Of a stretch of DNA of 64,000 bases, positions 17,553 through 58,440 are shown piece by piece (position 1 is the first letter of the stretch; each line of letters starts with the position of its first letter). The position numbers were made by a program, and so were the translations under genes. The notes under the pieces are model-generated. The model was not told the DNA's origin. It saw only the letters and a list, made by a program, of their open reading frames with translations, and did not search any database. The stretch is from Escherichia coli (lineage in GTDB: Bacteria > Pseudomonadota > Gammaproteobacteria > Enterobacterales > Enterobacteriaceae): the NCBI RefSeq assembly GCF_036507355.1, contig NZ_AP027877.1. One strand, 5' to 3'.

Positions 17553-17634
17553 CAGGATTCCTCATCTCGCTTTATTGGCGCTCTGCTAAGGCGGAGAAAG
17601 GAAACCACCGAAGCAGTAGTATTGGTCATTATTT

Positions 17635-17650
17635 GCTAACTCGAGTTAGC
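17635..17650. promoter_or_regulatory. Perfect 16-bp palindrome GCTAACTCGAGTTAGC (candidate operator), copy 1
   Basis: Exact self-complementary 16-mer centred on CG in the fucI / ABC-transporter divergent intergenic region. Confidence 0.5.
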
Positions 17651-17694
17651 TTAGGTTCGTAGGCTTTTTATGCACAACTTTTTTGTTGTTGAAA

Positions 17695-17710
17695 TGTGAG
17701 GGGCTTCACG
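17695..17710. promoter_or_regulatory. CRP-like site TGTGA-N6-TCACG
   Basis: TGTGAggggctTCACG, 9 of 10 matches to the CRP core consensus, lying between the two palindromes. Confidence 0.4.
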
Positions 17711-17873
17711 AGAAGTGGTTAAAATACGATCTCTGTCAAATTATTATTTAGCGGGACAAAAATAAATTTTACGTATAATCATATGTTTATTAGATTTTAA
17801 TGGTTATGCATCACAGTTTTAACTCAAATGATTTGGCTAATTTGTATACCTAAAATAGCTTTAAAAGGCGATC

Positions 17874-17889
17874 GCTAACTCGAGTTAGC
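17874..17889. promoter_or_regulatory. Perfect 16-bp palindrome GCTAACTCGAGTTAGC (candidate operator), copy 2
   Basis: Identical to the copy at 17635-17650; centre-to-centre spacing 239 bp. Confidence 0.5.
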
Positions 17890-18021
17890 AAAATGCGAAG
17901 AATAGATTGATGCGATGAATATTTATTCAAAGGTTATTCGTATCACAGTGGAGATGGCTTTAGTAGCGACGTTTATGCCGTACTTCACATTTTCAGTTTC
18001 TGATTATTGAGGAAAGCTGCA

Positions 18022-19521
18022 ATGTCCGAAACATTTTTGCAAATGAAGCATATCACCAAACGCTTTCCTGGAGTGTTGGCGCTTAATGACGTGCAATTTT
18101 CCCTACGCCGGGGCGAGGTTCATGCATTATTAGGTGAAAATGGTGCAGGAAAATCTACCTTAATGAAAATTTTGTCGGGGGTTTATCAACCTGATGAAGG
18201 CGAAATAATTTTTGAAGATAAACCAGTCTCATTTTCTGATCCGTTAAGTGCGCAAAACGTAGGTATTACTATTATTCACCAGGAATTTAATTTATTTCCC
18301 GAGCTTACAGTAGAGGAAAATATTTTTATCGGCAGGGAGTTTTGTAAAAAAAATCGCTGGCGTCTGGATGAGAAACAGCAACGCCAGGCGACGATCGAAA
18401 TTTTGCAAAAATTAAATTTGGCGATCAAACCAGATACTCTGGTTGCCGACCTTACGGTAGCTCAACAGCAGATGGTTGAAATTGCCAAGGCCATTTCGGT
18501 TAACGCCAGGATTCTCATTATGGATGAACCTACTGCGGCGTTAACAGAAACTGAAATTGAAAGCTTATTTCGCGTCACCCGCTTATTGAAAGAGCAGGGG
18601 ACCGGCATTGTGTATATATCCCACCGTCTGGAAGAGTTGGCGCTAATTGCCGACCGCGCGACTGTAATGCGTGATGGTCAGTACATCAGTACGGTGGATT
18701 ATGAGTGCGTAAAAATCAGCGATCTGATTGCCATGATGGTTGGTCGCGATTTAGGGAATATCTATCCCCGCCGCGAGGCCATACAGCAGCGGATGCCGGT
18801 TCTGGAGGTCAACGGACTGACGCGCAAAGGCGTACTCAACGATATTAATTTTACGCTTTATCGTGGCGAGATCCTCGGCTTTGCCGGACTGATGGGGGCA
18901 GGTCGTACTGAACTTGCGCGTGCGATTTTTGGTGCGGACTCCATTGACAGCGGAACGCTAAAGTTAAATGGTAAGGAAACCGTTATTAAAGATATTTCGG
19001 ATGCTATTCAGCAGGGAATTAGTTACCTGACGGAAGACCGAAAAAAAGAAGGGTTGGCACTGAATTTATCTGTTGAACGAAATATTATGTTAGGAAATTA
19101 CCCTGAGTATTCCGATCGTTTTGGGAATGTCGATTCGCGTCGTTGCCAACAAACCAGTGAGGAACAGGTAAAAGCGTTAAGGATTAAAACGCCAAATCTT
19201 GAACAGGCTGCATTAAATCTAAGTGGAGGAAATCAGCAGAAAATTATAATTGCACGTTGGGTGTGTAAAGATACTGATATTTTAATCTTCGATGAACCCA
19301 CTCGCGGCATTGATGTTGGCGCCAAACTGGAAATCTATGAGTTAATGAATCGCCTGGTGGCAAAAGGGAAATCAATCATCATGATCTCCTCTGAATTGCC
19401 GGAGGTGTTAGGAATGTGCGACCGTATTTTAGTGATGCGCAGTGGTCGAATTACTGGCGAACTTAGCGCAAATGAAGCGACACAAGAAAAAATCATGCAA
19501 TACGCGACGTTAGAGGATTAA
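18022..19521 (+). CDS. Sugar ABC transporter ATP-binding protein, two fused ABC domains (CUT2 family, RbsA/XylG-like)
   Basis: 499-aa product from ATG 18022 (GAGGA RBS); Walker A GENGAGKST, second-domain signature LSGGNQQK and degenerate second P-loop GLMGAGRTE; about 42% GC. Confidence 0.85.
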   Translation: MSETFLQMKHITKRFPGVLALNDVQFSLRRGEVHALLGENGAGKSTLMKILSGVYQPDEGEIIFEDKPVSFSDPLSAQNVGITIIHQEFNLFPELTVEENIFIGREFCKKNRWRLDEKQQRQATIEILQKLNLAIKPDTLVADLTVAQQQMVEIAKAISVNARILIMDEPTAALTETEIESLFRVTRLLKEQGTGIVYISHRLEELALIADRATVMRDGQYISTVDYECVKISDLIAMMVGRDLGNIYPRREAIQQRMPVLEVNGLTRKGVLNDINFTLYRGEILGFAGLMGAGRTELARAIFGADSIDSGTLKLNGKETVIKDISDAIQQGISYLTEDRKKEGLALNLSVERNIMLGNYPEYSDRFGNVDSRRCQQTSEEQVKALRIKTPNLEQAALNLSGGNQQKIIIARWVCKDTDILIFDEPTRGIDVGAKLEIYELMNRLVAKGKSIIMISSELPEVLGMCDRILVMRSGRITGELSANEATQEKIMQYATLED

Positions 19522-19524
19522 ATT

Positions 19525-20508
19525 ATGACTATCTCTGTAACCTCTCCAGACAGCAATAATAAGAAAATAAAGATAAATAAAGAACTTTTGATGCGCCTTG
19601 CGCCTCTTTTTAGCTTAATTATATTAGCGCTGTTTTTTAGTTTCAGCTCTCCCTTTTTCTTTAATACCGAAAATATCATGACGATTGCTCTGCAAACGTC
19701 GGTTATCGGCATTATGGCCATTGGGGTAACTTTCGTCATTATTACCGCGGGCATCGATCTTTCATTGGGTTCCGTGGTGGCTTTTTCTGGTGTCGCCGTG
19801 GGGATTTGCGCCACACTGGGCCTGCCGCTGCCAGTGTGTATTATTGCCGGTGTTTTAGCCGGTGGAATGTGCGGCTATGTGAATGGTTTGTTGGTCACTA
19901 AAATGACTATTCCACCGTTTATCGCTACCTTGGGCCTGATGATGTCCGTCAGAGGTATCAATATGGTGATGACCGACGGGCGCGCCATCTATTTTGCCGA
20001 TTACCCGATGTTCAAAACGCTCGCTCAGGGACGCTTGTTTGATGTGCTACCTTATCCTGTTTTCTACCTGGTCATTGTGGCGCTTGTCGGCGCTTACATC
20101 CTGAAGAAAACGGTTATTGGTCGCTATGTCTATGCCGTAGGCAGTAATGAAGTTGCTGCTCATCTTTCTGGTATTAAAGTTCAGCGCGTGAAAATTTTCG
20201 TCTATGCCTTCTGTGGTTTATTAACCGGGATTGCGGGTGTCATTCTCGCTTCTCGTCTCAACTCCGGACAACCGACGGTAGGTGTGGGTTATGAGCTGGA
20301 AGCTATTGCTGCGGTAGTGATCGGCGGAACCAGCTTAATGGGCGGTATTGGCACTATTGGCGGCACAATCATTGGCGCTTTCATTATGAGTGTACTGAAA
20401 AATGGCCTCAATTTAATGGGGGTCTCTCAGTTCTGGCAAATGGTCGCGATGGGCGTAGTTGTGGTCGCTGCCGTTTACCTCGATACATTACGCAAAAAGA
20501 TTCGTTGA
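19525..20508 (+). CDS. Sugar ABC transporter permease (RbsC/XylH-like)
   Basis: 327-aa polytopic membrane ORF starting 4 nt after the ATPase stop with GAGGA RBS. Confidence 0.85.
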   Translation: MTISVTSPDSNNKKIKINKELLMRLAPLFSLIILALFFSFSSPFFFNTENIMTIALQTSVIGIMAIGVTFVIITAGIDLSLGSVVAFSGVAVGICATLGLPLPVCIIAGVLAGGMCGYVNGLLVTKMTIPPFIATLGLMMSVRGINMVMTDGRAIYFADYPMFKTLAQGRLFDVLPYPVFYLVIVALVGAYILKKTVIGRYVYAVGSNEVAAHLSGIKVQRVKIFVYAFCGLLTGIAGVILASRLNSGQPTVGVGYELEAIAAVVIGGTSLMGGIGTIGGTIIGAFIMSVLKNGLNLMGVSQFWQMVAMGVVVVAAVYLDTLRKKIR

Positions 20509-20581
20509 CTTAGGCTCCCTGTTTTATCGGGAAACAACTGCCCTGACGTTAAGGGTGATTCACTCAGAACGGAGTACAACA

Positions 20582-21532
20582 ATGAAAACCAGGCATTTTA
20601 TCTATGCGTTATCTCTGCTGGCTTGCGTAAGTTCCAGCGCACTGGCGAAGGATTTAAATCTTCCGGTTGTTAGTAAAGGTTTCCAACATGAATTCTGGCA
20701 AACCGTAAAAATGGGGACTGAAGCTGCGGCTAAAGAGTTGGGGGATAAAACCAGCTATGTTGGCCCGGCTGATGAAACGCAAATAGCCGAGCAAATTCAG
20801 TTAGTCGAAAATGCGATGGCGCAGAAACCGAATGGCTTGCTTCTGGCAGCCCTCGACGCGAATGCGCTCGCCCCACTGGTAGAAACGGCAAATTCACGCG
20901 GTATCAAAGTGGTGACCTTTGATTCAGGCATCAATTCAGACATTCCGGTGAGTTTTGTCGCCACCAATAACCGTAAAGCAGGTGCTCAGGCAGCTGATGC
21001 CTTAGCCGCGCAGGTAAATAATAAAGGGAAAGTAGGGATTATCGCGCACGTTGCAGGAACATCTTCCGCTATTGAACGCTCGGAAGGCTTCATGGAGCGT
21101 ATGAAAGAAAAATATCCTGACATTAAAGTTTTACCCGTTCAGTACAGCGATGGTGACCCGCAAAAAGCGATGGATAAAACTATCGATATGATTCAGGCCA
21201 ATCCCGATCTTGCTGGGATCTATGGCACCAATGAAGGTTCAACGCTCGGGGTGGCGAATGCCATTGATAGCCAGAATCTGAAAGGTAAGGTGAAGGTCAT
21301 TGGTTTTGATAGTACGGAAGCGATTATTAACTTCCTGAAGAACGGCGTCATTCAGGGCTTTGTTGTTCAGGATGCATACCAGATTGGCTATCAAGGGATC
21401 AAAACGTTGAACGCGGCCCTTTCGGGACAAGCCGTTGAAAAAGAGATCGATATTCCCGTGAAATTTGTTAATGCCGAGAATATTAACACGCCAGAAATCG
21501 ACAAACTCCTGCACCCATTCGGTAAGAAATAA
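20582..21532 (+). CDS. Periplasmic sugar-binding protein (RbsB-like)
   Basis: 316-aa product from ATG 20582 (GGAG RBS); Sec signal MKTRHFIYALSLLACVSSSALA; the six-frame ORF starting at 20459 is an over-extension. Confidence 0.85.
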   Translation: MKTRHFIYALSLLACVSSSALAKDLNLPVVSKGFQHEFWQTVKMGTEAAAKELGDKTSYVGPADETQIAEQIQLVENAMAQKPNGLLLAALDANALAPLVETANSRGIKVVTFDSGINSDIPVSFVATNNRKAGAQAADALAAQVNNKGKVGIIAHVAGTSSAIERSEGFMERMKEKYPDIKVLPVQYSDGDPQKAMDKTIDMIQANPDLAGIYGTNEGSTLGVANAIDSQNLKGKVKVIGFDSTEAIINFLKNGVIQGFVVQDAYQIGYQGIKTLNAALSGQAVEKEIDIPVKFVNAENINTPEIDKLLHPFGKK

Positions 21533-21539
21533 AAAAATT

Positions 21540-21559
21540 GGGGATGAATTTTCATCCCC
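21540..21559. other. Perfect 8-bp-stem hairpin between the binding-protein gene and the kinase gene
   Basis: GGGGATGA-attt-TCATCCCC preceded by an A7 run; no T-tract on the plus side, so it is not a canonical plus-strand terminator. Confidence 0.4.
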
Positions 21560-21585
21560 GTTATCTCCAGCGTCAGGGAGGCTTT

Positions 21586-23166
21586 ATGCACAACGGTTAT
21601 TTTCTCGGTGTCGATGTCGGATCGGCCAGTGTCAGGGCAGGCGTTTACAGTGCCAGTGGCCACAGGCTGGCATTCGCTACTGCGCCCGTCTCCCAGTTTC
21701 GCCCTGGCGGCGAGCGTGTTGAACAGTCTTCGGCGGAGATCTGGCAACAAGTTTGTAAAACGGTGAAAGAGGCGACAGCTTTGGCAGGCATCCCTGGTTC
21801 CGCAATTCGCTCGCTAGGTTTTGACGCTACTTGCTCGCTGGTTGTTCTTGATGAACAAGGCCAGGGTTTAGCTGTTTCGCCCGGTGGATCTGCGAATCAC
21901 GACATTATTATGTGGATGGATCATCGTGCAACTGTCGAGACGGCGCAGATTAACGCGACGAAGGATCCTGCATTGCGCTACGTTGGCGGCGAAGTGAGCG
22001 TCGAGATGGAGTTACCAAAGTTACGTTGGTTGAAGACGCATCTACCGCAAACCTGGCAGGCCGCTCATCGCTTTTTCGATCTGGCGGATTTTCTGGTCTG
22101 GAAAGCAACAGGGCGAGACGTCGCGGGATTATGCACGCTAACGTGTAAATGGAATTATCTGGCTCATGAGCAACGCTTTAGCCATAGCTTACTGGAATCG
22201 ATAGACCTGATCGATATGCTTGAAAGAATTCCTGCCGACATTCTTCCGCCTGGCGCTGCCGTGGGAACATTAACCGCCACAGCTGCTGAAGAGTTAGGAT
22301 TAACGACTAATGTTATCGTGGCCAGTGGCTTGATTGATGCCCATGCCGGTGGCGTGGCGCTGGCTGGCGCGCACCCATCAGGAACGCTGGCATTGATAAG
22401 CGGAACGTCGAACTGCCATATGCTGTGTAGTGAAAAAGAGATATTCACCCCTGGCGTCTGGGGGCCATACTGGTCGGCCATGTTGCCAAATTACTGGCTA
22501 ACCGAAGGCGGGCAAAGCGCCGCAGGGGCGCTGGTGGAGTGGACGCTTCAGGAGTCAGGGGCAAGCGCAAATCTTTTTCACAAGGCGCAGCAACGCGGAT
22601 GTCATCCGATTCAACTGATTAATGAATGGGTAGCCGCCCTGGAAGCTAACGAGTCAGAACCCACACGAAATTTACATGTGCTTGCCGATCATCACGGCAA
22701 CCGTTCGCCACGAGCGCGGCCCGATGCCAGAGGCAGTGTTTATGGCTTAACACTGGAGCGTGGTGAAAGTCAGCTCGCGCGACTTTATCTTGCGACTTTA
22801 CAGGCAATAGCCTTTGGCACCAGACATATTATTGAAACTCTCAGGGAAAATGGGCATACCATTACCCGATTAACATTATGTGGTGGTGCAACGCACAACC
22901 CTTTATGGCTACGCGAATATGCAGACGTGACAGGCTGCGATATCCACCTGATGCAAGAAGAAGATGCCGTTACATTGGGTGCAGCAATTAGCGGCGCTGT
23001 TGCCAGCGGAGCATGGGGGGATTTTACATCTGCGTGTAAAGCAATGGTTGAAGCCGGAGAGGTTATTCAGGTAAATCCACAACGCCGTGAATTTTTAGAG
23101 CGTAAATACCGGGTTTACCTGACGCTTTGGGAGCAACAACAGGCAGTTAACCAACTGATGCAATAA
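21586..23166 (+). CDS. FGGY-family carbohydrate kinase, pentulose (ribulokinase-like) type
   Basis: 526-aa product from ATG 21586 (AGGGAGG RBS); FGGY N- and C-terminal domains (GVDVGSASVR, IIMWMDHRA); distinct from fucK. Confidence 0.8.
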   Translation: MHNGYFLGVDVGSASVRAGVYSASGHRLAFATAPVSQFRPGGERVEQSSAEIWQQVCKTVKEATALAGIPGSAIRSLGFDATCSLVVLDEQGQGLAVSPGGSANHDIIMWMDHRATVETAQINATKDPALRYVGGEVSVEMELPKLRWLKTHLPQTWQAAHRFFDLADFLVWKATGRDVAGLCTLTCKWNYLAHEQRFSHSLLESIDLIDMLERIPADILPPGAAVGTLTATAAEELGLTTNVIVASGLIDAHAGGVALAGAHPSGTLALISGTSNCHMLCSEKEIFTPGVWGPYWSAMLPNYWLTEGGQSAAGALVEWTLQESGASANLFHKAQQRGCHPIQLINEWVAALEANESEPTRNLHVLADHHGNRSPRARPDARGSVYGLTLERGESQLARLYLATLQAIAFGTRHIIETLRENGHTITRLTLCGGATHNPLWLREYADVTGCDIHLMQEEDAVTLGAAISGAVASGAWGDFTSACKAMVEAGEVIQVNPQRREFLERKYRVYLTLWEQQQAVNQLMQ

Positions 23167-23230
23167 GACAAAAGTTGAAAATACTTTTATGATTGTGATT
23201 TGACGTCTGGATGTTAACTGGGAAATACCT

Positions 23231-24229
23231 ATGGCTAAAACAGTAGAGCAGATAGCCAGCGACCTGAATTTATCGGTTACGACCGTGCGACTGGTGCTAA
23301 ATGGAAAAGCGGAACAATATCGAATCAGCGTCAAAACCCAAACGCGTATCAATGAATATGTTGAACACTATGGTTATATCATTAATCATTCCGCTCGCAG
23401 CCTTAAACTTAACAAAACTGATACATTAGGGTTGATTGTTCCCAACATATCCAACGTCTTTTTTGCTACGCTGGCAGAAAAACTTGAACAACGCTGCCGA
23501 CGTTCCGGATATCAACTTACGATCAGTTGTACTTATGATGATGTCGACTATGAAAATAAATTGACGAAAGCATTTATCGCACGAAATGTAGATGGTCTTT
23601 TTATTGTTCCTTCGACGCTGGAGAATCAGCAGCATCATTTACGCAAAATTCGTAAACCAATGGTTTTACTCGACCGTGATTTTAAATATACCGATAATGC
23701 ATTGGTAGAGAGTAATAATATTTCTGGCGGAGAAAAGTTGACACAAAATATTCTTGAGGCCGGGCAGACTCCAGTATGGTTTTTGCTGGGGGATGCCGGT
23801 TTGCCGAGTATCAGCGATCGTCTGACAGGTTATTTGAATGCGTTGGAAAAAAAAGGGATTACCCATCGCGATTGGGTGCGAGAAGGCCCGGTAAATACTC
23901 CGGAAGGCGGCTATGTCATTATGGAAAAACTCATTGAAGAGCAGGGATGTCCGCAGGCATTTATCGCCTCGTCTTTACCTGTGCTTGAAGGCGCTGTCCG
24001 CGCGATTCGCGACCGTCTTGGCGCTGTACCGCCAGAAATCAATATTGGCACTTTCGATGAACATCCCATGCTGGGATTTCTCGCCAACAATGTCTGGTCA
24101 ATGCAGCAGGATGAAAATGCCTGGGCAGAAAAAGCGTTCGAAATGATGTTAAGCGCGATCGAAGAAAGACCAGTCAAAAAAACAGTCAAAGTAGAAATGA
24201 AATTAATTAAGCGCATAAGAAAAAAATAA
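23231..24229 (+). CDS. LacI-family transcriptional regulator
   Basis: 332-aa ORF with N-terminal LacI HTH (VEQIASDLNLSVTTVRLVLNG) and periplasmic-binding-like effector domain; about 43% GC. Confidence 0.85.
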   Translation: MAKTVEQIASDLNLSVTTVRLVLNGKAEQYRISVKTQTRINEYVEHYGYIINHSARSLKLNKTDTLGLIVPNISNVFFATLAEKLEQRCRRSGYQLTISCTYDDVDYENKLTKAFIARNVDGLFIVPSTLENQQHHLRKIRKPMVLLDRDFKYTDNALVESNNISGGEKLTQNILEAGQTPVWFLLGDAGLPSISDRLTGYLNALEKKGITHRDWVREGPVNTPEGGYVIMEKLIEEQGCPQAFIASSLPVLEGAVRAIRDRLGAVPPEINIGTFDEHPMLGFLANNVWSMQQDENAWAEKAFEMMLSAIEERPVKKTVKVEMKLIKRIRKK

Positions 24230-24362
24230 TAATCGCCAAAAGATAATCAGGCTATTGAACAATGATATTCAGTGGCCACCCCTTACTAAAAATAACCCCG
24301 TCTTCATTTGCGGTGCTGTTTTACGCAACAAGGCGAGCTGGAACTGTATCTGGAGAATAGAG

Positions 24363-28532: not shown

Positions 28533-29822
28533 TTAGCTGAACAGAGAGTAGAAGATTGCGGAGATTGCAATCAGACCCATCACGACAACGAATACGTTGC
28601 TGATGTGACCGCTGTACTTACGCATTGCCGGTACTTTCTGAATTGCGTACATCGGCATCAGGAACAGGATCATCGCGATGATTGGGCCGCCCAGGGTTTC
28701 AATCATACCCAGGATGCTCGGGTTCAGGGTGGCAACAATCCAGGTCGTTACCAGCATGAACAGCGCAGTGATACGGTTCAGCTTGTTGATTTCGATAGAC
28801 TTACCTTTACCACGCAGAGATTTAATCACCATACCGTTGAAGCCTTCACGTGCGCCCAGGTAGTGGCCGAGGAAGGATTTGGTGATAGCGATAATCGCGA
28901 TAATCGGAGCCATCCACGCGATAACCGGTGCGTTAAAGTGGTTAGCCAGGTAAGACAGAATCGAGATGTTCTGCTCTTTAGCCGCAGCCAGGTCTGCCGG
29001 AGTCAGGCTCAGTACGCAGCTGAATACGAAGAACATTACGGTCAGCACCATCATGATGTGTGCGAATGCCAGGATCTTCGAGCATTTCTGTTCTGCCATA
29101 TCGCCGTACTCTTCACGCTTCGCAACGGCGAAAGAAGAGATGATCGGAGAGTGGTTGAACGAGAACACCATTACCGGAATTGCCAGCCACAGGGTCATCC
29201 ACAGACCGTTTCCGGTTGCAGATGCAGTGTCCAGAGACAGCGTTTCCAGTGCTGCGCCGTTCCACTGCGGGATCAGGTACAGAGCCAGCAGCATCAGTAC
29301 GCCAACAAACGGGAATACCAGAATACTCATCGCTTTAACGATCATCTGTTCACCAAAGCGAACGATGGTCATCATACCCACGATTAGGATCAGCGACAGA
29401 ATCGCACGCGGCGGTGGTGTCATACCCAGCTGGTGAGACATGAAGCTTTCAACTGTATTGGTGATTGCCACGCTATAAACCAGCAGGATCGGGTAGATAG
29501 CGAAGAAGTAGAGCAGGGTAATCAGTTTACCTGCGCCAATACCAAAGTGTTCTTCTACAACCTCGGTGATGTCTTCGCCCGGGTTTTTACCAGACAGTAC
29601 GAAGCGAGTCAGGCCGCGGTGAGCAAAAAACGTCATCGGGAACGCAAGGATAGCCATGATGATCAGCGGGATCATACCGCCAACACCGGCGTTGATTGGC
29701 AGGAACAGCACGCCCGCGCCGATTGCCGTGCCGTAAAGGCCCAGCATCCACATGGTGTCTGTCTTGCGCCAGGCACTACGAGAGTCTTTCGACGCAATCG
29801 TGCTGGTTTGAGTCGTTTCCAT
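28533..29822 (-). CDS. sdaC: Serine:H+ symporter SdaC
   Basis: 429-aa HAAAP-family transporter upstream of sdaB. Confidence 0.9.
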
Positions 29823-35950: not shown

Positions 35951-37303
35951 ATGAGTTCTTTAAGTCAGGCTGCGAGCCGTGTGGAAAAACGCACGAATGC
36001 TCGTTACTGGATAGTGGTGATGTTGTTTATCGTCACATCCTTCAACTACGGCGACCGCGCTACGCTTTCTATTGCCGGTTCGGAAATGGCCAAAGATATC
36101 GGCCTTGATCCCGTGGGAATGGGCTATGTGTTCTCTGCCTTCTCATGGGCTTATGTTATCGGGCAGATCCCTGGTGGTTGGTTGCTGGATCGTTTTGGTT
36201 CAAAACGCGTCTACTTCTGGTCGATCTTTATCTGGTCGATGTTTACCTTGCTGCAAGGCTTCGTCGATATCTTTAGTGGATTCGGCATTATCGTTGCCCT
36301 GTTTACTCTGCGCTTCCTGGTCGGGCTTGCTGAAGCGCCATCTTTCCCCGGCAACAGTCGCATTGTTGCGGCCTGGTTTCCGGCGCAGGAAAGGGGAACG
36401 GCGGTGTCGATTTTTAACTCCGCTCAATACTTCGCAACGGTGATCTTCGCGCCGATTATGGGCTGGCTGACGCATGAAGTGGGCTGGTCACACGTCTTCT
36501 TCTTTATGGGCGGTCTGGGCATTGTCATCAGCTTTATCTGGTTGAAAGTCATCCACGAGCCAAATCAATATCCGGGGGTAAATCAGAAAGAGCTGGAGTA
36601 CATCGCCGCGGGTGGCGCGCTGATCAATATGGATCAGTAAAACACCAAAGTTAAAGTGCCGTTCAGCGTGAAGTGGGGGCAGATCAAACAACTGCTCGGG
36701 TCACGGATGATGATCGGCGTTTATATTGGTCAGTACTGTATCAACGCCCTGACTTACTTTTTCATTACCTGGTTTCCGGTTTATCTGGTGCAGGTGCGTG
36801 GGATGTCGATTCTGAAAGCGGGCTTTGTGGCTTCCGTTCCGGCGGTTTGCGGTTTTATCGGCGGTGTGCTGGGTGGGATTATTTCCGACTGGCTGATGCG
36901 CCGCACGGGATCGCTGAACATTGCGCGTAAAACACCGATCGTAATGGGCATGTTGCTGTCGATGGTGATGGTGTTCTGCAACTACGTCAACGTTGAGTGG
37001 ATGATCATCGGCTTTATGGCGCTGGCCTTCTTCGGTAAGGGCATTGGGGCGCTGGGTTGGGCAGTAATGGCAGATACCGCACCAAAAGAGATCAGCGGTC
37101 TTTCCGGTGGCCTGTTCAACATGTTCGGTAACATTTCTGGCATCGTCACGCCAATCGCAATTGGTTATATCGTTGGCACGACTGGCTCCTTTAATGGGGC
37201 GCTGATTTATGTTGGTGTTCATGCCTTAATCGCGGTACTGAGCTACCTGGTGCTGGTGGGCGATATCAAGCGTATCGAGCTGAAACCTGTCGCGGGGCAA
37301 TAA
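35951..37303 (+). pseudogene. gudP: Glucarate/galactarate MFS transporter GudP interrupted by an in-frame TAA at 36638-36640
   Basis: 229-aa ORF (35951-36640) and 215-aa ORF (36656-37303) are in the same frame and together form one 12-TM MFS protein; sequence reads ...INMDQ-TAA-NTKVKVPFSVKWGQ... Confidence 0.85.
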
Positions 37304-50096: not shown

Positions 50097-51410
<1,314 letters not shown>

Positions 51411-51465: not shown

Positions 51466-51828
51466 TCACATTTTGAGTTCAGTAAGCAGAGCGATAACAT
51501 TAATAAATGTTATTCCCACCAGGATAAGTATCCGAACAATTTTTCTGCTATTCCTTACATTGCTGACAAAATCATTATGAGAAATATTGGATGAATATTT
51601 TCGTTGATGGACTTTATAATCCCAAAGAAGATCATTTGCCTCAGGTATTGGGTTAATCAGACTGTAGATGCAAAAGTATACAAACGTATCTAAAGCAAGC
51701 AGTGATGTTATCAGTTGAAATAATTCATCGCCCTGGAAGGCTTTATTAAGCCAAATCATTCCAGCAGCACCGAATAAGCCAAATACAAATTTACTTAATC
51801 GCGGATGATTCGCTAAAATCTTACTCAT
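51466..51828 (-). CDS. Small hypothetical membrane protein (120 aa, 2-3 predicted TM helices), last gene of the LemA/TPM operon
   Basis: ORF with AGGGAAGG RBS 36 nt downstream of the TPM gene stop; very AT-rich (about 35% GC). Confidence 0.5.
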   Translation of the reverse strand: MSKILANHPRLSKFVFGLFGAAGMIWLNKAFQGDELFQLITSLLALDTFVYFCIYSLINPIPEANDLLWDYKVHQRKYSSNISHNDFVSNVRNSRKIVRILILVGITFINVIALLTELKM

Positions 51829-51863: not shown

Positions 51864-52766
51864 TTACCATCTTCCTGACGCGCCGCCACCGCCGGATGAA
51901 CCGCCGCCACCGCTGAAATTGTCATTGTCGAAAGAGGATGAAGAGGAAGAAGACGATGACGAATGCCAGGAGGCCGAGTTGCTTCTTTCGTAGCGTGACG
52001 GTCGGTTTGCACTACGCATTGAATCACGCACCTTTCTGCCGAAAGGTGTGAAAGCGATAGCTACGACCAGGAATGGAGTGGCGAAACATAATAATGTGGC
52101 AAGAATTCCCCAGCTCCCGCTATATCCAGCGATGGGAAGTACAAAGGCCAGTATTATGGCAGCAAAGCAAATCACTCCCAGCGTTTTGATATATCCTCTG
52201 GCAGAAATAAACGTCAGTACTATCGCCCAGACTAACAGAGCCCACCAACCGCTAAAGGGTAAAGGATGATCGGGCGATGTATTATTGACTAAATCATTTC
52301 CTGATAGTCGGGTTTCAATATCACCAATACCTTGTTGCAAGCCGACAGCAAGGTCGCCCTTTTTAAACGCTGGAATAATACTGTTGCGTATAATTTGCCC
52401 GGACTGCGCATCCGTCAGAATACCCTCAAGTCCGTAGCCAATTTCAATATGTACTGTATGATCTTGCTAGGCAACTACCAGTAAAATACCGTCATCAAGA
52501 TTCTTATGACCGGGCTGCCAACGCTCGAATACCCGCGTTGCGTACTGCTCGATGGTTTCGTCGCCTGTTGTATCAACCACTAACACGACCAACTGTGCGT
52601 GTTTTTTTTGTGTCAGGGCTTTAATCTGGTTGGTCAGGGTGTTTACTTCGCTGTTTGTTAATGTGCCGGTTAAGTCATTCACATACTTGGGTGATTCAGG
52701 TACTGGAATTTGTGTGGCAAACACAGATGAACAGAAGAAAGCCGTAAGGAAGATAAAATTTCGCAT
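51864..52766 (-). pseudogene. ygcG: TPM-domain (YgcG-like) protein interrupted by an in-frame TAG at 52467-52469
   Basis: N-terminal ORF (signal peptide MRNFIFLTAFFCSSVFA plus start of TPM domain) and C-terminal ORF (TM segments plus Gly/Ser-rich tail) are in the same frame, separated only by the amber codon; sequence reads ...LLVVA-TAG-QDHTVHIEIGYGLEG... Confidence 0.75.
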
Positions 52767-52779
52767 AGAACTTCCCCGC

Positions 52780-53400
52780 TTAATGAGCATTAGCATTCTG
52801 GCTAAAATCTATTGTTGGGGCTTTACTTACTGCGGCGACATCATCCGGCAAATAATTTTTCTTTGGTGTGTAATCCATGACCTTTGCGGTTAATACAGCG
52901 GGGAATTTGCGGATAGTGACATTATATTGTTCAATGGCTTTAATATATCTTCCTCGCGCAACGGCAATTCTATTCTCACTTCCTTCGAGCTGTACCATTA
53001 AGTTTTGATAGAGCTCTTGAGCCTTTAACTCAGGGTAACGCTCACTAATTATCGTTAACTGACCGAGAGTGCGAGTCACCTGCGCCTGGGCCTGTTGCCA
53101 GGCTTGTAATTTTTGTGCATCTCCGGGAGCTTGCTGAAGATCGCTGCTGGCGCGATTAGCCTGGCTACGAGCCAATGTTACGGCTTCCAAAACGTCTTTT
53201 TCATGGTTGGAATAACCTTTAATACTGGCGACAAGATTAGGAATAAGATCGGCGCGACGTTGATATTGATTTAATACCTCAGACCAGGAGGCGTTAACCT
53301 GCTCATCATAGGTTTGAATATCGTTATATCCACAGCCTGATAAATTGAAAATAAATATAATTAAGATGAATATCCTGAGCATGTTTAAATCCTTTTTCAT
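52780..53400 (-). CDS. LemA-family protein (probable lipoprotein)
   Basis: 206-aa LemA-family ORF with N-terminal signal and lipobox LSGC; stop lies 13 nt upstream of the TPM gene start. Confidence 0.8.
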   Translation of the reverse strand: MKKDLNMLRIFILIIFIFNLSGCGYNDIQTYDEQVNASWSEVLNQYQRRADLIPNLVASIKGYSNHEKDVLEAVTLARSQANRASSDLQQAPGDAQKLQAWQQAQAQVTRTLGQLTIISERYPELKAQELYQNLMVQLEGSENRIAVARGRYIKAIEQYNVTIRKFPAVLTAKVMDYTPKKNYLPDDVAAVSKAPTIDFSQNANAH

Positions 53401-54419: not shown

Positions 54420-54565
54420 TATAGAATTATTTTAAATATTTGCCTTTTTAATCAATGGGTTAAGTGCTCTTTAACATAATGGATGTGTTGTTTGTGTGAT
54501 ACTGTAAAGTTGGTAGATTGTGACTGGCTTAAAAAATCATTAATTAATAATAGGTTATGTTTAGA
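54420..54565 (+). promoter_or_regulatory. AT-rich CRISPR leader of array 1
   Basis: AT-rich tract ending ...GGTTATGTTTAGA immediately 5' of the first repeat. Confidence 0.6.
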
Positions 54566-54777
54566 GAGTTCCCCGCGCCAGCGGGGATAAACCGGAGAGA
54601 GTCCAGTATCAATCCCGCGATCCGCAGAGTTCCCCGCGCCAGCGGGGATAAACCGCCGTTGCGGATCTTGAGTAGTGCCACGTCACCGAGTTCCCCGCGC
54701 CAGCGGGGATAAACCGGGTACAAAAGAGGCCCCATTCTGGCAGGGCTCGAGTTCCCCGCGCCAGCGGGGATAAACCA
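54566..54777 (+). CRISPR. Type I-E CRISPR array: 4 repeats of 29 bp, 3 spacers of 32 bp
   Basis: Repeats GAGTTCCCCGCGCCAGCGGGGATAAACCG at 54566, 54627, 54688 and 54749 (last ends in A); spacers GAGAGAGTCCAGTATCAATCCCGCGATCCGCA, CCGTTGCGGATCTTGAGTAGTGCCACGTCACC, GGTACAAAAGAGGCCCCATTCTGGCAGGGCTC. Confidence 0.95.
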
Positions 54778-55241
54778 CCATATAACCCGTTATCTCTTTC
54801 TCAAGTTTTTATATTAGCAGTACTTGTAATAAGCAACATATCCACGTAACACCTCATGTTCAAAATAGTTCCCCATGCCAGATAAGTTCACAATTATCGA
54901 TACAAAAAATTAAATTTAATCAAAGTGTTATTTGTATAATTCTTAAGCCGTTAAGAAATTTTAATCTATTATTTTTTTAATATTAATTAATGCCTGTTAA
55001 TTTTTTCTTTAGTATAACAGTGTATTTTTTAAGCTTGTTATTCATTGATTAAGTAATAAATCTGGAAATTTGTCTTTGTTTTGAGGCTAATGAGTGGTTT
55101 TACATAACCGCCTCTATACGCTGTTGATGAATAGTTCTTATGAATAAAGATATCCAGTTCATACTTTAAGTGAAAATTGATAAAGTGCGATTCGTATTGT
55201 CTTTTATTCTAAAGACATCGAGTGTAGTTAATATTCCTTGT

Positions 55242-55368
55242 AAAAACAGGGATAAACCGAACTAGTTAAAGTTTTTATTATGTTCCCTGCATCAGCGGGG
55301 ATAAACCGGACTTGTTATCATTTTTTAAGTTGTCGAACTTATGTTCCCCGCGCCAGCGGGGATAACCA
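55242..55368 (+). CRISPR. Degenerate type I-E CRISPR array remnant: 2 decayed repeats plus a partial repeat, 1 full-length spacer
   Basis: Partial repeat ...CAGGGATAAACCG ending 55259; ATGTTCCCTGCATCAGCGGGGATAAACCG (55280-55308); 32-bp spacer GACTTGTTATCATTTTTTAAGTTGTCGAACTT; ATGTTCCCCGCGCCAGCGGGGATAACCA (55341-55368). Confidence 0.8.
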
Positions 55369-55414
55369 TTCAGGTATGTTCAGGCCGGGCAGTTTCCCGC
55401 CCGGTTTTCCTCAC

Positions 55415-56919: not shown

Positions 56920-58197
56920 TTACTTGCTGCTAGCTATTGCGGGGGCGCTATCAGCAGTACGAATTTTTTGGAACAGCAAAAAGGTAAAGACGATCACCAT
57001 GCCGAGTGCCGCCATGCCCATCAGCCACATGTTGCGGTAGGCTTCTGCTGCGGGCAGGGTGTCCTGCCAGTGGCCGATAATCGGGTAAACGAAGACATCC
57101 GGCAGGAATCCAATCACCGAACAAATACCTACCGTGGTGCCCATAATGTAAGACGGTGTTCTCGCTTCGCCAGGGCAGGCCCAGTACAGCCCGCGTGAGG
57201 CGTAACAGGTGAATCCCAGCAGTAAAATCAGGCCAATCCCCATCGCGACCGATTGCGGGTTAGAGTTCGTGACGAGCAGGGCAGTTAACGCCAGCAGGCC
57301 GAGTACGGAAAGGATTTGGATCACGCGGGTAGGGGATTTCACTTTGCTGTAGGTGGTGATTATGCCGCCAAGTGGGCCGCACAGCGCGCGGAATATTTTG
57401 TTGATCACAATCCCCATGTAGCTCGCCGCCACCAGCGACATGCCGTACATTTCGGTCAGATAGTTGGTGGAGTAACTCAGAATGGCGTAGATGGTGAAGA
57501 CACCAAAAATCACCATGCTGCAATACCAGGTGGTGCTGATGCGCAAAACGGCCAGGATGTCGCTAAGCTGGAATGACTGTTTTTCTTCGTTATTGGCACT
57601 ACGCAGGTTATTGTTATCGCTAACAAAAAACCAGCACAGAAGCCCCAACAAGATGTAAACCACACTGTAGATGATAATGACCGTTTTCAGGCTGGCGCTG
57701 TCATCCGGTGCAAAGCGAGAAAAGACCCACATGGTAAACACCGCCAGCGACATTACACCGACGCCGCGCAGCCCTTCCATCCAGCCCATAATTTTCCCTT
57801 GCTCGCTATGATCGCCAAGCAACGATGCGGCTTTAATCGACACCGACCACAGCATTAAAATCGTTGTTATCGCAAAGGCGACCTGAATACAGAGCATTAC
57901 CCACAGCGGTGGATACGTTGCCATTAACAGACCCAGTAATCCGGTAATGATCATCGCGGAAGTAATCATTTTGCGGTGTGAAAATTTATCGGCAATAACG
58001 CCGCTGGGGGCATAAAGAATAATAGCCGCAATACCAAAGGTACTCATTATTAAACCTATCTCGGTATTGCTGAATCCCATAAATTTCGCCATGGGAATTT
58101 GATAAATATAACGTAAATAAGCCAGGTCGAAACTAACGCCGCCGCTAAAACTAATTATCGCGAGGGTTATCCAACGGCGATATGAGTTGTGTTGCAT
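56920..58197 (-). CDS. yqcE: MFS transporter
   Basis: 425-aa 12-TM ORF upstream of ygcE on the same strand. Confidence 0.85.
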   Translation of the reverse strand: MQHNSYRRWITLAIISFSGGVSFDLAYLRYIYQIPMAKFMGFSNTEIGLIMSTFGIAAIILYAPSGVIADKFSHRKMITSAMIITGLLGLLMATYPPLWVMLCIQVAFAITTILMLWSVSIKAASLLGDHSEQGKIMGWMEGLRGVGVMSLAVFTMWVFSRFAPDDSASLKTVIIIYSVVYILLGLLCWFFVSDNNNLRSANNEEKQSFQLSDILAVLRISTTWYCSMVIFGVFTIYAILSYSTNYLTEMYGMSLVAASYMGIVINKIFRALCGPLGGIITTYSKVKSPTRVIQILSVLGLLALTALLVTNSNPQSVAMGIGLILLLGFTCYASRGLYWACPGEARTPSYIMGTTVGICSVIGFLPDVFVYPIIGHWQDTLPAAEAYRNMWLMGMAALGMVIVFTFLLFQKIRTADSAPAIASSK

Positions 58198-58375
58198 ATC
58201 GTATTCCCATTTGTAATAGACAAAAAAAAGAGAAAAGTAAGCCGCCCTTTCAGGTGGATTACTTTTCTCAGGTCTCTAGTAATTGAAATAATAAATAACA
58301 TGGAAAGCAGAGGTGTTGTGTGAGAGTAATCACGCTTCTGCTTTTTAAAACTATTTGATAATGCGAATATCACAC

Positions 58376-58391
58376 TGTGATTACGATCACA
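58376..58391. promoter_or_regulatory. Perfect CRP core site TGTGA-N6-TCACA
   Basis: TGTGAttacgaTCACA in the divergent yqcE / ygcU' intergenic region, about 57 bp upstream of the ygcU' ATG. Confidence 0.5.
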
Positions 58392-58440
58392 TTAGCAGTT
58401 ATGTCCTTATGCTAAAAATTATCTCCAGTTACCAGAGATA

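Follow-up and report, generated by a model that had tools for sequence, protein, structure and literature searches.

A young lineage-specific amber codon very probably inactivates a ygcG-like TPM-domain gene in Escherichia coli

Within the stretch of Escherichia coli DNA that we analysed (64 kb in full, hereafter the window), a ygcG-like gene for a TPM-domain protein is interrupted by an amber codon, and this change from TGG to TAG at Trp100 is real, derived, rare and confined to a small lineage. We regard it as very probable that the locus holds a young, lineage-specific nonsense pseudogene of an accessory envelope gene, generated by a G:C to A:T transition at position 52468 that turned the tryptophan codon into a stop. 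Taken by itself the case is an ordinary one that matters little. The pseudogene sequence was already present in public databases, and it adds one more example to the routine decay of accessory genes in E. coli.

The interrupted gene and its locus

The frame of the whole gene occupies 51864..52766 on the minus strand, where it runs from an ATG at 52766 to a TAA at 51866-51864 and, on translation, comprises 300 codons plus the terminal TAA (301 codon positions with the latter counted), broken at codon 100. Its single internal stop is the premature TAG at 52469-52467 (52467..52469, minus strand), set in the context GCC TAG CAA; the mutated base, 52468, is A on the coding strand, as opposed to the G (TGG, Trp) of all sampled orthologues. 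In the ORF listing the TAG is flanked by two frames in the same register, one on the N-terminal side (52467-52796, minus strand) and one that starts from the first possible restart, a TTG (51864-52340, minus strand). By using the IAI1 orthologue as a tblastn query against the window, we recovered 301 residues aligned colinearly across the TAG (90.4% identity, with exactly one '*'), from which it follows that the two ORF halves are no chance juxtaposition. Hence, the sequence-only reading of this DNA, which had described a TAG at 52467-52469 splitting two same-frame ORFs, was correct in its central observation; the length that it gave (about 299 aa) holds as a count of sense codons, whereas the Trp-restored protein has 300 aa.

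The same reading had proposed a signal peptide, a TPM domain, transmembrane helices and a Gly/Ser-rich tail, and each of these elements was recovered here from the Pfam match (aa 29-151), the hydropathy profile and the composition of the tail. The Trp-restored sequence scored 131.2 bits against the Pfam family TPM_phosphatase (PF04536; cut-off 22.1, E=2.8e-38), covering profile positions 1-123 of 125, and the corresponding coding region (aa 29-151; 52314..52682, minus strand) was also aligned at the sequence level to the PDB entry 7tbr. A Kyte-Doolittle scan of the Trp-restored protein revealed a hydrophobic N-terminus (aa 4-22), for which we predict a signal-peptide cleavage site of the VFA↓TQ type. 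Further on, at about aa 169-243 (52038..52262, minus strand), lie three hydrophobic and presumably transmembrane segments (a designation taken from the Kyte-Doolittle scan rather than from a dedicated topology predictor), which are now placed downstream of the TAG. They are followed by a tail of 57 aa (51867..52037, minus strand) that opens with a basic stretch, continues as a Ser/Gly-rich one (20 Ser, 9 Gly in the tail) and ends in FSGGGGSSGGGGASGRW, an ending common to K-12 YgcG. Judged by sequence, architecture and synteny, the gene is a member of the TPM (PF04536)/YgcG family: the signal peptide, the TPM domain, the membrane segments, the Gly-rich end (GGGGASGRW) and the eno-queE location are all there, and the assignment was based on synteny, 47% identity to K-12 YgcG over aa 1-157, the C-terminal motif, hydropathy and the NCBI name. 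The TAG falls ~58% of the way through the TPM domain, ahead of the conserved GYGLE motif, and with this stop at codon 100 the window genome encodes the complete domain in no single uninterrupted ORF.

The gene belongs to a minus-strand cluster with the order lemA - TPM gene - orf120, located between queE and eno (the latter at 50112-51410, with 99.9% identity to E. coli), that is, in the slot held by ygcG in K-12. Public copies of the encoded proteins likewise carry the label E. coli. Intact lemA (LemA family; 52780..53400, minus strand; Pfam PF04011, 165.5 bits; 97% identity to IAI1 LemA) is separated by 13 nt from the ATG of the TPM gene, and this short spacing suggests that the two genes probably share an operon; other annotations place the lemA start at 53382 instead (200 aa). 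On the other side orf120, an intact hypothetical gene of 120 aa (51466..51828, minus strand) without a match in Pfam, NCBIfam or PADLOC, starts 35 nt past the TPM stop. A promoter and terminator scan of the minus strand returned nothing relevant to the operon beyond shuffled expectation. Between queE and ygcE we noted a short type I-E CRISPR array (54565-54777; 4 repeats of GAGTTCCCCGCGCCAGCGGGGATAAACCG), with three degenerate repeat copies further on (55230-55369). The adjoining array had prompted us to consider a link with anti-phage defence, an idea that was dropped since PADLOC gave zero hits for LemA, the TPM protein and orf120.

The eno-queE slot is polymorphic in E. coli and exists in three forms. 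The largest group is K-12-like (yqcG plus a divergent ygcG), with about 2,900 genomes in which the match to the locus query did not rise above low identity and, in every such case among the matches listed, lay over yqcG; the class A form (lemA-TPM-orf120) was found in about 340 complete genomes, and the class B form (lemA-TPM plus two further TPM genes) in about 1,100. The TPM allele of the window is a mosaic of the last two, being class B-like over its first ~240 nt and class A-like over the remainder. This recombinant structure changes over at ~52527 (near nt 240 of the gene); the class-B-like part extends through lemA, which has the long 206-aa form (O157/LF82-type), and the rest of the TPM gene together with orf120 is class-A-like (IAI1-type). 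We also considered K-12 yqcG to be a possible lemA remnant and discarded this reading, as the proteins lack similarity and the DNA match falls at the lemA 5' end and the region upstream of it.

Origin and carriers of the amber codon

All six sampled orthologues (K-12 ygcG and the mosaic twin, besides members of classes A and B) have TGG (Trp) at codon 100, and intact orthologues consist of one uninterrupted ORF, 297-301 aa in length. A sense codon where the window has its stop, combined with one intact ORF in the orthologues, is the pattern that defines a nonsense pseudogene, and it answers the orthologue comparison that had been suggested earlier: the gene is normally one ORF, not two. Between the window gene and its nearest intact allele, that of the mosaic twin (L012), 2 of 903 nt are different; one of these changes is synonymous and the other is the G/A at 52468. 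The exact Trp-restored 300-aa protein is present in public data under the label 'YgcG family protein', and the DNA of this allele in four samples is 2-3 nt away from the window gene over the same 903 nt (at nt 156, which is synonymous, at nt 207 in 3 of the 4 samples, and at nt 299, the G/A of window position 52468). Such small differences imply a single G:C to A:T transition on an otherwise hardly altered background.

The change proved rare. When 5,426 complete RefSeq E. coli genomes were queried with a 71-nt probe that had the TAG at its centre, none matched exactly; 340 of them matched it, every one at 70/71, and in the genomes that were inspected the mismatch was TGG. The comparison of intact class A with intact class B alleles yielded a dN/dS of 0.119 overall and of 0.075 for codons 101 to the end, values that argue for strong purifying selection on the intact alleles; the low downstream ratio indicates that the part cut off by the TAG is selected protein-coding sequence in other strains.

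Outside the window the TAG was encountered repeatedly. The gene sequence is identical to that of the window in ERR3330519, ERR11525759 and the metagenome ERZ926208, and identical up to nt 526 in GCA_905398585.1, in which an IS1 element is inserted at nt 527 of the same TAG gene, downstream of the stop (L007:3527-3600; 100% identity to IS1 ends over the 76 nt past the junction). In addition, the exact 99-aa N-terminal product is public as BED21161.1, a hypothetical protein on a 4.64-Mb E. coli genome. The identical TAG in at least four independent public assemblies therefore speaks for a genuine lesion and not for a sequencing error, and the confirmation of the base call that had been recommended earlier is thereby provided. 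As the carriers differ among themselves (by flank SNPs at 53258, 54442 and 54903 and by one CRISPR spacer), they constitute a small natural lineage rather than copies of one faulty assembly.

The truncated product and competing readings

At codon 100 translation would be terminated by RF1, which would leave a translatable N-terminal fragment of 99 aa (52470..52766, minus strand) with the predicted signal peptide and the first ~70 TPM residues. This precursor would be exported and cut to about 82 aa at VFA↓TQ. Everything encoded past the TAG is lost, including the GYGLE block of the domain (as located by alignment to PDB 7tbr), the three membrane segments and the Ser/Gly-rich tail; since the 99-aa product lacks them, it would be non-functional and probably degraded, and it would neither fold as a TPM domain nor anchor in the membrane. 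The ~600 nt of untranslated mRNA that follow the TAG may lower the expression of orf120 through Rho-dependent polarity, and lemA would be unaffected. Presumably E. coli can afford this loss, the gene being dispensable.

We consider it very unlikely that the lineage instead keeps a low but functional amount of the protein (by an amber suppressor or by read-through at UAG-C) and that the repeated independent lesions of this gene stem from an adaptive advantage of losing or reducing an envelope protein, not from neutral decay. An even slimmer chance is given to the simpler proposition that the full-length protein is still produced by UAG read-through, be it because a near-cognate tRNA decodes the codon efficiently enough or because the strain carries an amber suppressor. 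The frame past the TAG is fully open, the same as in the intact alleles; this is uninformative, because the frame would be open both after a very recent mutation and in a read-through gene. The TAG lineage is, moreover, old enough to have accumulated flank SNPs and a CRISPR spacer difference. Termination is reportedly rather weak when the fourth base is C, and amber suppressors have reportedly been described in natural coliforms; trace amounts of full-length protein, through near-cognate read-through at UAG-C, are plausible. Against functional read-through stands the distribution of the stop: conservation across orthologues, the first defining trait of programmed read-through, is missing, given that no sampled orthologue shares the TAG and that only the small lineage carries it, all others having TGG. 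The tRNA genes within the 64-kb window are three tRNA-Met, with no suppressor tRNA among them, and the other nonsense lesion of the window is a TAA (in gudP), which an amber suppressor would therefore not rescue. In the IS1-bearing carrier, the insertion at nt 527 would destroy any read-through product and argues against constraint past the stop; the TAG carriers are identical downstream of the stop, which leaves zero variation for an estimate of selection within the lineage. Bacterial read-through is held to be rare, and both of the cases newly confirmed in E. coli K-12 concerned UGA (PMC5373646). Thus, where the sequence-only reading had offered a pseudogene or a read-through-dependent gene, the former is strongly favoured and the latter gained no positive support, considering the unconserved stop, the lack of a suppressor in the window and the downstream IS1.

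Remoter again is the prospect that the split gene is still useful, either through a functional secreted N-terminal fragment of 99 aa or through a re-initiated C-terminal membrane fragment. The 99-aa ORF keeps its start and signal peptide and is listed among the genes of a public annotation, and from the next in-frame start (TTG, codon 143) an ORF of 158 aa runs across the membrane segments. However, the N-terminal fragment stops in the middle of the domain, before the GYGLE motif, the TTG is not preceded by a Shine-Dalgarno sequence, the exact 158-aa product is absent from a collection of 15 billion proteins, and the C-terminal part has been removed by IS1 in one of the TAG carriers. Finally, the chance that the gene is intact and the TAG a sequencing or assembly error, as its one-base distance from a near-identical intact allele might suggest, is negligible, for the same base recurs in at least four assemblies from different runs and projects (a metagenome included) whose carriers differ elsewhere in the locus.

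Other lesions, annotation and known relatives

The window contains a further in-frame nonsense lesion, so that the description of the TAG as the second one was accurate: gudP (glucarate/galactarate transporter; 35951-37303, plus strand) has a TAA at 36638-36640, where CAA was changed to TAA at codon 230 of 450. With a 71-nt probe around this TAA we obtained no exact match among 5,403 matching complete E. coli genomes, in which the mismatch may concern any base of the probe. The gudP TAA and the ygcG-like TAG are both G:C to A:T transitions. We considered an amber-specific pattern in the window and dropped it, as there is just one further genuine in-frame nonsense lesion, namely this TAA; a scan for stop-split frames had also returned a second TAG at 29385-29387 (open flanks of 475 + 153 codons), which was rejected because it lies in an antisense frame of the intact sdaC/sdaB. 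At 58197-58429 ygcW is absent and the ygcU alignment begins at residue 105; the spacing of about 230 bp between the yqcE start and the ygcU remnant implies a ~1.4-kb deletion relative to IAI1, and this ygcW/ygcU deletion is the third gene-inactivating lesion in the window. In the fucose locus (17553-24362) fucP is missing, and a ~6.8-kb block between fucI and fucA encodes (according to Pfam) an ABC-transporter ATPase, a permease, periplasmic-binding/LacI-like proteins and an FGGY-family sugar kinase.

Independent lesions of the TPM gene were found in other strains. In the O157:H7 orthologue TTA is changed to TGA at codon 225, followed by a C, with the 72 codons downstream still open (L003:1720-1722, strain 7409). 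A 71-nt probe around this TGA225 matched 300 complete genomes exactly, so that the stop appears to be fixed in a large clone, and among the matches listed the labelled strains were all O157:H7. O55:H7 and other class-B strains are at least one base off the probe, and class-B LF82, ST69, RM14723 and UPEC129 have Leu at codon 225 and an intact gene; given these Leu codons and the O157:H7 labels among the matches listed, TGA225 was discarded as a trait of the whole of class B or as a conserved read-through site. Besides, Z22-7 has a frameshift near codon 219, and in PK8566 an IS1-family transposase is annotated inside the locus match, where the gene is probably broken by an IS1 insertion. Repeated truncation is also suggested by complete genomes whose members of the protein cluster measure 208-247 aa. 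This repeated inactivation in different lineages, the whole O157:H7 clone included, shows that the LemA/TPM envelope module is dispensable, a point worth knowing for anyone who assigns a function to it.

Public annotation apparently gives a distorted picture of the gene. In many strains PGAP/RefSeq records it as a 672-bp pseudogene 'missing C-terminus' (loci L014:15585-16256, from IAI1, L001, L002, L005, L016, L017 and L019), though the ORFs are complete (297-301 aa), and the flag is likely caused by the truncated 224-aa O157:H7 product serving as the reference protein. We therefore did not accept 'pseudo, missing C-terminus' as proof of broken class-A or class-B genes, their direct translation yielding complete ORFs. 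The outcome is a mismatch in which intact alleles are flagged as pseudogenes and the truly broken allele of the window is annotated as a 99-aa hypothetical protein.

The role of the TPM domain is disputed, with a phosphatase/ATPase activity on one side and a chaperone-like assembly factor for membrane complexes on the other (PMC11237479), and in the literature that we searched on ygcG, and on TPM together with LemA, no study addressed the function of the E. coli protein. At the level of sequence, TLP18.3/Psb32, Bizionia BA41/BA42 and B. subtilis YdjH share the TPM fold family, as distant relatives only; PDB sequence hits comprised 7tbr (4.6e-21), 2kw7, 5anp (BA41, 4.7e-18) and BA42 (3e-3), and the NCBIfam matches were sub-threshold only (Psb32, 38.7 bits vs a cut-off of 160; MamQ, 86.8 vs 250).

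Among closer relatives, K-12 YgcG (b2778, TPM domain-containing, 290 aa) occupies the same queE-eno slot and has the same architecture and the same C-terminal FSGGGGSSGGGGASGRW. Over aa 1-157, where it is 47% identical to the window protein, it has Trp at the equivalent codon; past aa 157 it is strongly divergent (dN 0.65 vs class A), and its locus differs in having the small gene yqcG in place of lemA, no orf120 and an intact ygcG. Closer still are the class-A and mosaic 'YgcG family protein' alleles (e.g. HBN7513642.1; IAI1, NADC1036), which lie in the same lemA-TPM-orf120 cluster, with 93-95% nucleotide identity to the window gene for class A and the 2/903 nt noted above for the mosaic twin, and which have TGG at codon 100 and the full 300-301 aa, even if many carry the PGAP flag 'missing C-terminus'. 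The O157:H7 protein WP_001243487.1 (224 aa) offers a parallel to the lesion itself, being an independent nonsense truncation of the orthologue in which the downstream frame is open too; its TGA225, however, falls after the TPM domain, within the membrane region, and appears fixed in a large clone, whereas the TAG of the window lies inside the domain and is restricted to a small lineage.
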